The notes under the pieces were generated by a model. That model was not told where the DNA came from. It saw only the letters and a program-made list of their open reading frames with translations, and searched no databases. From a virus (lineage: Duplodnaviria; Heunggongvirae; Uroviricota; Caudoviricetes), in IMG/VR virus record IMGVR_UViG_2526164594_000022: 23,911 nt of DNA. One strand, given 5' to 3'. How positions within the stretch are numbered: position 1 is the first letter of the stretch; the number at the start of each line of letters is the position of its first letter. The translations under genes were made by a program, and so were the position numbers. Of the stretch, positions 3,985 to 6,220 are shown piece after piece.

Positions 3985-4694
3985 TGGCGAAAAATGACTT
4001 TAAAGCGTTTGCAACTGATCGAAATGCCAATGTTATGTCGCAGGAGGAATGGGAAGCGTTGCCTGCGCTTATATCCGGATTTACAGCAGGGAAAGCATCC
4101 AGTGCGCAAGTCAATAAGGTTATTCGGCAGGCCAGCTTTATTGCTGCAGCTCTGGCCCAGTTTGTAAGTGATAAAACGCAACGGGATGTGCTTGATAATG
4201 GTGATCTGCCCGGTTTTGTTGAATTGCTGGGATCGGGGTTTGCTGTTGAATACCTGAGCCGCAAGAATCCGTTTGGCGATATCAAATCGGACGGCACGGT
4301 GAAAACGGCTCTTCAAAACCTTGGTTTGGGAGAAGCGGCAAAACGGGATGTGGGGACAGGGGAAAATCAGATACCGGACATGGCCTCTTTTGCCAGTGGT
4401 AATGGATGGATGAAATTACCCAACGGGAAAATCCTGCAATATGGTCGTGGTGCGGTTACGCCGACATTATCGACGCAAACAATGAGAATTACATTCAGCA
4501 TCCCTTTCCCCAAAAAAGCGGACTGCGCCATGCTTACTCATTCTGGTGATGGCGGTGCGCCTTTAGGCGCTGGGCGAGGGTTCGTGATGACTGCAGAAGG
4601 CCCAACGTTAACCGGCTTTAATTCTGCTTACAGAACGTCATCAACCAGCGACACGGTATCGATGAATTACAGTTGGTGGGCTGTTGGTGAGTAA
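3966..4694 (+). CDS. Tail-fibre protein (constant part plus variable C-terminus encoded inside the invertible segment), e14 StfP-like
   Basis: 242-aa ORF. The ix crossover site at ~4311-4334 lies inside the gene (encodes ..NLGLGE..). Followed by a tail-fibre assembly gene. Confidence 0.7.
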
Positions 4695-4705
4695 TTTTAT
4701 TCAGG

Positions 4706-5158
4706 GTGATTTATATGGACGAATATGTTTATAGCGCAAGGCATAATGCTTTTTTCCCTGTGGATATGATTGATAAATATAAATCAGAGGGATGGGATTT
4801 ATCAGACGCTAAGGAAGTAAATCAAAATATTATCAGTGAGTTTATGGCTGAACCGCCACAAGGAAAAATCCGTATTGCCGGAGATGATGGGCTGCCTGCG
4901 TGGGCAGATATTCCTCCACCCACGCATGAAGAGCTTATTGAAATTACTGAATCAGAAAGACAGCTACTAATTAACCAGGCCAACGAATACATGAACAGTA
5001 AGCAATGGCCCGGTAAAGCGGCTATTGGTCGTCTGAAAGGTGACGAACTGACGCAATATAATTTGTGGCTGGATTATCTGGACGCACTGGAGCTGGTCGA
5101 TACTTCCGGTGCGCCAGATATTGAATGGCCTACGCCTCCGGCAGTTCAGGCCAGATGA
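4706..5158 (+). CDS. Tail-fibre assembly protein (Tfa, orientation 1)
   Basis: 150-aa ORF immediately downstream of the tail-fibre variable end; C-terminal ...LWLDYLDALELVDTSGAPDIEWPTPP is typical of Tfa proteins. GTG start. Confidence 0.75.
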   Translation: MIYMDEYVYSARHNAFFPVDMIDKYKSEGWDLSDAKEVNQNIISEFMAEPPQGKIRIAGDDGLPAWADIPPPTHEELIEITESERQLLINQANEYMNSKQWPGKAAIGRLKGDELTQYNLWLDYLDALELVDTSGAPDIEWPTPPAVQAR

Positions 5159-5723
5159 CATCCGGCGCGGTGCTGGTATCTGTTGCCGTCACCGCGTCAA
5201 TGTAATCCAGCACGGCGTTAAGTCGGGTTGTTTCTGCCTGAGTCAGTTTCCGTCCGGCCTGTAACTTCAGCTGAATCAGACTAATGGAAGCCATTGCTGC
5301 ATCAATCAGTGATTGGCGCTGTGCTTCTGCCGCGTCTACTGCGGCACTGTGTTGTGCCTCAGTGTCTGTCACCCATTTCTCACCATCCCATTTATCGTAT
5401 GGCGTTAACGGTGAAATCGTGACATAACCGTCTTTGATGGCACCGATATAATCCACTGTAACAGCTGCGCCATTTTCGATTGAGTAAACAGTCTCATTGC
5501 GATGGTCTTCTTCATGGCTCCATCCCTTACCTGTAAATACTGCCACTCTTCCCGGAATGTTTTCGCCAGGGTCAATACCAGTGGAACAGGCGGGCATACT
5601 TACGCCAGTATTAATATATTCATCAGACCAGCCCGTATACTCAGATGTTTCAGCATCATAATAAAAACAACGCATATCGCCCGGCACTGTAGCCAGCCCA
5701 TTTTCATCAAAAACAGGTTTCAT
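5130..5723 (-). CDS. Tail-fibre assembly protein (Tfa, orientation 2), e14 TfaE-like
   Basis: 197-aa ORF convergent with the other tfa; C-terminal ...LNAVLDYIDAVTATDTSTAPDVIWPELPEA parallels the other Tfa C-terminus. Confidence 0.75.
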   Translation of the reverse strand: MKPVFDENGLATVPGDMRCFYYDAETSEYTGWSDEYINTGVSMPACSTGIDPGENIPGRVAVFTGKGWSHEEDHRNETVYSIENGAAVTVDYIGAIKDGYVTISPLTPYDKWDGEKWVTDTEAQHSAAVDAAEAQRQSLIDAAMASISLIQLKLQAGRKLTQAETTRLNAVLDYIDAVTATDTSTAPDVIWPELPEA

Positions 5724-6220
5724 TATTTAGCCCTCACCAGAAAGTTAAATGCAATATTTCGCGGTCTGACTGCAACAAAATTCACACCATCACCCACAGA
5801 GTTACTGGTGAAATTAAATCGTGAAAATCCTGGCTGATTTCCGGCGATGCCATCATGAAAGTTAATTGCGTGTCCCGCACCTTCGCCTATATTCCCGGCA
5901 AACTGAGAAAAGTTTGTAGCTGCCTGCCAGCTTAATAATTCGCGACCACCGTCTGCACCTCGCCCGTCATCCCAGATACGAATGAAATCACCGCGGGCTT
6001 CAGGTAATACCAGCGAAGGAAACACTTTCGCCAGCACAGGATAATCAGTGGCAGAGAATTTCGCGCCGTTGAACTTCAAAAACACCATACAGGACCAGCT
6101 GTCGATTACAGTATTTGGCATTGCAGCGGACGGCCAGAAGAACGGAACGCCAATAGCTGGAGCACCTTCTCCCAAACCAACGTTTATGAAAATGCAGAAA
6201 TAACGAGCAAATGGCATCAT
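5723..6220 (-). CDS. Alternative tail-fibre variable C-terminal segment (StfE-like); becomes fused to the constant part after inversion
   Basis: 165-aa ORF. Its 5' end spans the right ix site (encodes ..LGEGAP..), mirroring the left junction. Confidence 0.7.
   Translation of the reverse strand: MMPFARYFCIFINVGLGEGAPAIGVPFFWPSAAMPNTVIDSWSCMVFLKFNGAKFSATDYPVLAKVFPSLVLPEARGDFIRIWDDGRGADGGRELLSWQAATNFSQFAGNIGEGAGHAINFHDGIAGNQPGFSRFNFTSNSVGDGVNFVAVRPRNIAFNFLVRAK

Follow-up and report, generated by a model that had tools for sequence, protein, structure and literature searches.

The window analysed here is the whole 23,911-nucleotide stretch of DNA deposited in IMG/VR as the viral record IMGVR_UViG_2526164594_000022, and our subject is a tail-fibre inversion switch found in it beside pin, the gene of a serine DNA invertase. 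By genome sequence comparison the region is 100% identical to chromosomes of Escherichia coli O157:H7, in which the locus adjoins the tRNA-Thr gene thrW, downstream of proA, and is annotated in strain Sakai as 'prophage Sp1, lambda-like phage' (genes ECs_0280 to ECs_0284). The window is the defective thrW prophage Sp1, whose equivalent in strain EDL933 bears the literature name CP-933H (PMC4048457), and the switch lies at the right end of Sp1. In the RefSeq annotation of the identical locus, Sp1 is limited on one side by a truncated integrase and on the other by a P4-like satellite, Sp2. All that it still contains is an insertion sequence (IS) element, a LexA-family repressor gene, cro, cII, a frameshifted O and a fragment of P, together with the fibre module and pin, one gene each of the GIY-YIG and AraC families, and an IS remnant. 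Genes for lysis, head, tail or baseplate are absent from the annotation of Sp1, the sole trace being a remnant of a DUF2612 gene, in agreement with the original prediction, made from the letters of the window, of a prophage without head or tail-shaft genes.

Anatomy of the invertible segment

The segment holds two convergent cassettes, each made of a tail-fibre C-terminus and its own chaperone gene, and the two chaperone genes overlap at their 3' ends by 29 bp (Table 1). In the state present in the window, the constant N-terminal part of the fibre gene (Sc, 3984-4322) is continued by the variable C-terminal part Sv (4323-4694), which contains the Gp53-like_C domain. Sv is 97% identical to the C-terminus of gp31, the fibre of the P2-like phage pro483, and this similarity begins exactly at the residues LGLGE encoded by the crossover site. 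The alternative C-terminus, Sv' (5723-6178 proper), follows a short leader (MMPFARYFCIFINVGLGE) whose start is beyond the segment, on the side of pin. Flipping positions 4323-6178 in silico yields an in-frame fibre of 264 amino acids, the form that the annotations of Sakai and of the intact phage vB_EcoM-611R5 give for the fibre. The constant N-terminus lies outside the segment, the two C-termini and their chaperones lie inside, and the fibre is in frame in both states, which is the fibre architecture of the Mu G and P1 C segments. A search of the fibre parts against NCBIfam returned nothing useful.

Table 1. Features of the switch and its surroundings in the window (ORF, open reading frame)
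Feature	Position	Strand	Basis or remark
pR-like promoter, TTGACT-17-GATAAT	2056..2084	+	scan, 10/12 matches; between cI-like repressor gene and cro
P/DUF2612 in-frame fusion ORF	3673..3984	+	junction query matches, weak Pfam DUF2612
Tail-fibre gene, current state, 236 amino acids	3984..4694	+	translation; Pfam Gp53-like_C
Left crossover site pixL, CTCTTCAAAACC-TT-GGTTTGGGAGAA	4309..4334	+	inside fibre ORF
Invertible segment, 1856 bp between the two core dinucleotides	4323..6178	.	in-silico flip found in real genomes
Chaperone for Sv, 147 amino acids	4715..5158	+	Pfam Caudo_TAP E 2.7e-30; 97% identical to pro483 gp32
Chaperone for Sv', 197 amino acids	5130..5723	-	Pfam Caudo_TAP E 2.3e-27; 65.5% identical to e14 TfaE
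Alternative C-terminus Sv' and short leader	5723..6220 (5723-6184/6220)	-	translation; 44% identical to e14 StfE
Right crossover site pixR, TTCTCCCAAACC-AA-CGTTTATGAAAA	6167..6192	+	5' end of alternative C-terminus
pin, 184-amino-acid serine DNA invertase, Hin/Gin/Cin/Pin (Din) family	6247..6801	+	Pfam Resolvase and HTH_7
Candidate Fis-dependent recombinational enhancer, pin nucleotides 22-85	6268..6331	+	analogy with hin/gin
PD-T4-3/CMoRE, GIY-YIG type IV restriction enzyme	6859-7632	-	PADLOC E 2e-140; PDB 9U75 E 8e-175

The two crossover sites, pixL and pixR, are imperfectly palindromic sequences of 26 bp each, inverted with respect to each other. The inner half-site is the same in both, as is the non-palindromic TT/AA core (the reverse complement of pixR reads TTTTCATAAACG-TT-GGTTTGGGAGAA). 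An inverted-repeat search returned the pair 4316-4335 / 6166-6185, 20 nucleotides long and 95% complementary. Within the 23.9 kb of the window, the 15-mer TTGGTTTGGGAGAAG has exactly two copies, one per strand (0.00 expected from 100 shuffles), and the core motif AAACSNNSGTTT occurs solely at pixL and pixR (0.14 expected). In translation pixL reads LQNLGLGE, within the fibre ORF, and pixR reads INVGLGE, where the alternative C-terminus starts. The original prediction, of inverted sites flanking about 1.86 kb with two convergent sets of fibre C-terminus and assembly gene, proved accurate to the base, and the translations place the left site inside the tail-fibre ORF and the right site in the 5' end of the alternative C-terminus, as it had proposed. 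Comparison with the gix site of Mu, which it had named as a check, reveals the same 26-bp layout, with an AAACC-NN-GGTTT centre common to both.

The invertase gene begins 55 bp past the right site, immediately outside the segment. Its product matches the Pfam families Resolvase (E 8e-52) and HTH_7 (E 1e-15), its residues 1-181 align to the crystal chain 3UJ3 of Mu Gin (E 5e-94), Ser10 is present in VRVSTNDQ, and 178 of the 184 residues are identical to PinE of K-12. With this catalytic serine and a C-terminal helix-turn-helix (HTH), Pin has the sequence attributes expected of a small serine recombinase. Sequence comparison with e14 and the alignment to the Gin structure disclosed no inactivating changes in pin or in the site cores, and the claim of an intact serine invertase next to the switch is upheld by the domains, the serine and the identity with PinE.

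Related hin and gin systems carry a recombinational enhancer in the 5' end of the invertase gene, and a candidate enhancer may be placed by analogy in the same part of pin. A perfect match to the degenerate Fis consensus occurs at nucleotides 71-85 of pin, at a position kept in pinE, gin and the invertase gene of pro483, and a scan of the 5' ends of these four genes for Fis sites and synonymous conservation gave a pattern that is no more than suggestive. The first 160 nucleotides of pin have 3 differences from e14 pinE.

Both orientations among O157:H7 genomes

At a coverage of at least 80% of a 3.4-kb query, the orientation of the window is found in 86 complete genomes and that of the construct flipped in silico in 118, many of them with an unbroken match of 100% identity. 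In Sakai, EDL933, TW14359, EC4115 and others, the flip at 4323-6178 is matched at 100% over 3401 nucleotides as a single piece; strain 86-24 has the window orientation, both in NZ_CP038408.1 and in its 6565 derivative. The P/DUF2612 deletion junction described below is carried by exactly 204 genomes, and since this number equals the sum of the two orientations, every genome with this prophage remnant keeps the whole module, 42% of them in the window state and 58% in the flipped one.

Inversion can be followed within a clone. The cattle strains 110 and 107, with chromosomes of 5,442,850 and 5,442,851 bp, are identical over 44,715 bp around the locus save for an exact reverse complement between the sites. 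These two strains and strain 109 carry IS1203 inside one chaperone gene, that for Sv', at about position 5344 (locus 21791-23004), and in the inversion between 110 and 107 the element was carried along with the segment, so the flip is later than the IS insertion within one clone. In addition, Greig et al. (2021) reported a '1739 bp inversion' among four outbreak isolates within 5 single-nucleotide polymorphisms of each other, the tail genes concerned belonging to the compound prophage at thrW (PMC8190617). We found no mention of an invertase in that paper, and Pin/pix inversion gives a mechanism for this small structural variant between O157:H7 outbreak isolates. Inversion is still going on within the lifetime of single clones and outbreaks. 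The search for both states that accompanied the original prediction was approximated here with public genomes and found the two of them, 86 against 118 and including the near-isogenic pair 110/107; the outcome that would have spoken against a working switch, a single orientation together with a damaged pin or damaged cores, did not materialize, both states being present and pin and the cores undamaged.

The PacBio assembly NZ_CP017251.1, of the 86-24 isolate 6564, is garbled only within the segment (88-94% identity, more than 70 gaps and chimeric orientation, at about 1370-2950 of the locus), with flanks that are 100% identical. The source was probably a culture of mixed orientation, in which case the 'frameshifted' pseudogene calls made there by RefSeq would be artefacts. 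To have a mechanism for a variant of this kind, which can garble long-read assemblies, is useful for outbreak genomics.

IS1203 was observed in the segment or nearby in several O157 strains (110/107/109, DEC4E and F8492), and the segment of the 110/107 clone, enlarged to 3.2 kb, still inverts.

Known switches, intact relatives and the gutting deletion

The closest known system is the P segment of the K-12 prophage e14 (stfP-tfaP-tfaE-stfE-pinE-mcrA), which has a gene order in common with Sp1. Besides the near identity of Pin and PinE, the right site is the same at 26 of 26 positions and the left site at 24 of 26. In both prophages the convergent chaperone genes overlap by 29 bp, their 3' halves being 90% identical in nucleotides, a leader ORF starts beside pin, and a type IV restriction gene follows immediately past pin. 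The differences begin with the prophage and its attachment site, which for Sp1 is thrW, and with the span from site to site, 1858 bp in Sp1 versus 1827 bp in e14. The constant part of the Sp1 fibre is unrelated to StfP save for its last 20 codons or so. Sv and its chaperone are of the type of the P2-like phage pro483 (97% there, 35-54% to e14), the identity of Sv' to StfE is 44% and that of its chaperone to TfaE 65.5%, and the nuclease past pin is PD-T4-3/CMoRE in Sp1 versus McrA in e14. Finally, e14 retains some baseplate genes, whereas Sp1 has only the 82-codon remnant. By these sequence comparisons the Sp1 switch is homologous to the e14 P segment, with a Pin and pix sites of e14 type, and, as cargo and prophage differ, is not the e14 P segment itself.

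The G segment of Mu, inverted by Gin, follows the same logic, with a constant N-terminus outside, two C-termini with chaperones inside, and the invertase gene past the right site, and Gin and Pin are identical at 143 of 181 residues. The segment of Mu is longer (about 3 kb), its gix core is TC/GA where that of Sp1 is TT/AA, and its fibre has 504 amino acids versus 236 or 264 in Sp1. The C segment of P1, inverted by Cin, has the same switch logic as the Mu G segment. An architecture of the G, C and P segment type, complete in all its parts, had been predicted for the window, and the sites, the reading frames, the Pfam domains and the comparison with e14 and Mu bear this out. In Mu, however, which is a viable phage, the host range of the virion depends on the switch, whereas Sp1 yields no virion (PMC2669165). 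As it has no morphogenesis genes, there is no virion to use the fibre and hence no host-range role.

Among intact phages, the Sv'/chaperone cassette is present in vB_EcoM-611R5 and its relatives (95%), where it is arranged as in Sp1 and an invertase gene lies past the segment, and pro483 carries the Sv/chaperone cassette (97% in amino acids), a site identical to pixR (26/26) and a related invertase. A regular-expression search for sites in pro483 found the right site alone. The SEN34-like phages vB_EcoM-611R5, 606R2 and 683R1 and pro483 have full sets of lysis, head, tail and baseplate genes, and the window has none.

How Sp1 lost these genes can be read from the ORF that precedes the fibre gene. 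It joins the first 21 or so codons of a lambda-type replication gene P to the last 82 or so codons of a DUF2612 baseplate gene, with the deletion junction at 3736/3737. When 3640-3840 was used as a query, its positions 1-97 matched 'replication protein P' and its positions 98-201 a 'DUF2612 domain-containing protein' of other genomes, and the weak Pfam match of the ORF falls at the C-terminal end of the DUF2612 profile. The intact phages vB_EcoM-611R5, 606R2 and 683R1 are 97.6% identical in nucleotides from the junction through the constant fibre part. In vB_EcoM-611R5, which carries terminase, head, tail, tape-measure and baseplate J genes, a full 226-amino-acid counterpart of the DUF2612 remnant stands just before the 264-amino-acid fibre gene, followed by the two chaperone genes and the invertase gene in the same order. 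The gene order of these relatives indicates that the fibre gene in the window is full length, and that the entire stretch from P to the last 82 codons of the baseplate gene was lost in a single deletion. The parent of Sp1 would thus have been a lambdoid myovirus like vB_EcoM-611R5 or SEN34, and one deletion would have taken its lysis, head and tail genes and set the fibre cassette directly downstream of an SOS-inducible early operon. RefSeq calls both halves of the fusion fragments of a 'phage replication protein', a label that does not fit the second half, and the stop codon of the fusion ORF overlaps the start codon of the fibre gene.

A scan of the plus strand found no terminator-like site between the pR-like promoter and position 5158. 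Given the deletion and this lack of a terminator, the fibre cassette is now the distal part of the early right operon, and the pR-like promoter may drive SOS-inducible read-through into it. In published work, Sp1 showed no excision, replication or packaging, yet its residual early genes were clearly induced by mitomycin C, with 'significance unknown' (PMC2669165), and the CP-933H tail-fibre genes Z0314 and Z0316 had log fold changes of 6.0 and 5.3 under trimethoprim-sulfamethoxazole (PMC4048457). Read-through from pR fits both of these inductions, which were left unexplained there.

Two further observations concern the early region. The lambda-type O gene (2754-3676, plus strand) is frameshifted and has kept its origin iterons (repeats of ATCCCTCAAA... 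at about 3100-3200). On the minus strand, at 2697-2670, a strong hairpin has the look of a terminator, and we take it to resemble the lambda oop terminator.

Mechanism, persistence and neighbouring genes

In our interpretation the module is a working Pin/pix inversion switch, a member of the Hin/Gin/Cin/Pin family and a homologue of the e14 P segment, kept in the defective prophage Sp1, and we put the probability of this reading at about 0.85. Its anatomy, its homology and its two orientations in nature are shown by the sequence comparisons above. The catalyst of the flipping is likely to be the resident Pin, dimers of which would bind the two inverted 26-bp sites and presumably form a synapse with an enhancer, occupied by Fis, near the start of pin. 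Cutting at the shared TT/AA core and strand exchange would then invert the 1.86 kb and swap Sv or Sv', each with its chaperone gene, onto the constant N-terminal 113 codons of the fibre, in frame.

Several points weigh against this interpretation. It is by its sequence and position that pin is put forward as the source of the flips, and the enhancer is assigned to its 5' end by analogy. The search of O157 genomes located one or two further pin-like sequences besides pin, and the invertase ECs_4992 of the Mu-like prophage Sp18 of Sakai is identical to Pin at 131 of 181 residues (72%). Cross-complementation is known among Din invertases. PinQ and PinR are reported to invert the e14 segment as well (PMC12529663). 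Orientation was counted genome by genome and not along a phylogeny, so that independent flips can be counted only in the few clone-level cases. Lastly, the neutral retention of the switch that we discuss below is a default view and not a demonstrated result.

These further invertases make it conceivable that the segment is flipped in trans, by the Gin-like enzyme of Sp18 or by one of the lambdoid PinQ/PinR type, the resident pin being dispensable or inactive. Each O157 genome has two to three pin-like places, the Sp18 enzyme is 72% identical to Pin, and cross-action of Din invertases is reported for the e14 segment (PMC12529663). However, the resident pin is intact, its product is 97% identical to the active PinE of K-12 with the catalytic serine and a full HTH, and the gene occupies the canonical position beside its site. 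Moreover, many O157 genomes have only two pin-like places, and Sp18 is absent from some strains (PMC8190617). We therefore consider flipping in trans unlikely, and retain Pin as the probable catalyst.

In Sakai, the Sp18 stretch 42806-45338 contains its own invertase gene, ECs_4992, and a fibre fragment of 67 amino acids. A regular-expression search for sites there found one recognisable crossover site alone (ATCCCGTAAACC-AA-GGTTTCAGGGAT), and Sp18's own segment may no longer be invertible.

As for why a switch of this kind persists in Sp1, neutral survival is the simplest account, hitch-hiking being simpler than a function for the host, since the lineage is young and the module is enclosed by the inducible immunity region and the PD-T4-3/CMoRE gene, either of which could plausibly be retained on its own account. 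Because the copies are essentially identical in a young lineage, their intactness is expected without selection. Across the 204 genomes the copies are about 100% identical, which leaves no sequence variation from which selection could be read. The suggestion made with the original prediction, that the completeness of the module points to selection for something else, is not supported by anything measured here.

The rival view is that the switch is kept for the host, and that phase-variable free fibre proteins, SOS-inducible since the deletion, mask receptors and block incoming phages. The active product would be either the full-length fibre or a truncated ORF starting beside pin. This view draws on the e14 homologue, in which inversion of the segment is claimed to create StfE2, a fusion of the leader beside pin with the C-terminus of StfP, that blocks adsorption of T2 (Kirigo et al. 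2025, PMC12529663). The flipped O157 state has an equivalent, an ORF of 136 amino acids in which the leader is fused to Sv (ECs_0283 of Sakai, WP_001115553.1), and RefSeq treats it in flipped genomes as an intact, non-pseudogene protein. Here too a chimeric ORF starts beside the invertase gene and ends in a fibre C-terminus after the flip, so that switch type and ORF geometry are those of PinQ/StfE2, a match in structure alone. The Sv part of this ORF is 35% identical to the C-terminus of StfP that forms StfE2. In further support, the fibre genes are strongly induced by SOS-type stress, the module is kept in all 204 genomes with the deletion, and the adjacent gene is a bona fide anti-T-even defence. 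On the other hand, the copies are essentially identical, with no signal of purifying selection, and IS1203 in a chaperone gene is tolerated in the cattle clone, other strains also having IS insertions. The cargo formed by Sv and Sv' differs from that of e14, and a promoter scan found no convincing promoter for the truncated ORF. The function of StfE2 has been claimed for e14 of K-12 only, so that its extension to O157 would be by analogy. For these reasons we regard a role for the host as improbable, and the same low expectation applies to the idea, drawn from e14 StfE2, that the switch has become a domesticated, phase-variable device for receptor masking or superinfection exclusion beside CMoRE. 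If that idea were true, upon DNA damage or phage attack each O157:H7 cell would make one of two free receptor-binding proteins, as well as the truncated product of ECs_0283 type, and flipping by Pin would hedge the population.

The least probable alternative is that site-specific recombination is not the source of the two orientations, which would instead be errors of assembly or the outcome of RecA-dependent exchange at short inverted repeats. It can point to NZ_CP017251.1, which is garbled exactly within the segment and shows that assemblers can have trouble there. We reject it, since repeats of only 15-20 bp are not long enough to mislead long reads or for RecA to act on efficiently, and the exchange falls at canonical invertase sites. 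Moreover, dozens of independent assemblies match one state or the other cleanly at 100%, and a culture of mixed orientation better explains the garbled one.

A Pin/pix switch in Sp1 adds no new kind of system, being of a well-known type in a much-studied genome. It does add to e14 another, independent example of a gutted prophage in which a tail-fibre switch stays live, with a type IV restriction gene as its neighbour, and with it the claim of phage defence for such switches becomes directly testable in a pathogen.

The restriction gene next to pin, which matches PD-T4-3 over its full length, sits exactly where e14 has mcrA. The PDB entry 9U75 that it matches is the O157:H7 CMoRE itself, which degrades DNA containing 5-hydroxymethylcytosine (5hmC) and glucosyl-5hmC (PMC12923530). 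Both gutted prophages, Sp1 and e14, keep the order fibre switch, pin, type IV restriction gene.

Farther along the window, the P4-like satellite Sp2 carries a Lamassu-type set of LmuA, LmuC and LmuB (11347-14622, plus strand) that looks decayed, LmuA being split into two ORFs and LmuB into three. Three of these ORFs have informative RefSeq labels ('ABC-three component system protein', its 'middle component 2' and 'AAA family ATPase'), and RefSeq enters the remaining three as 'hypothetical protein'.

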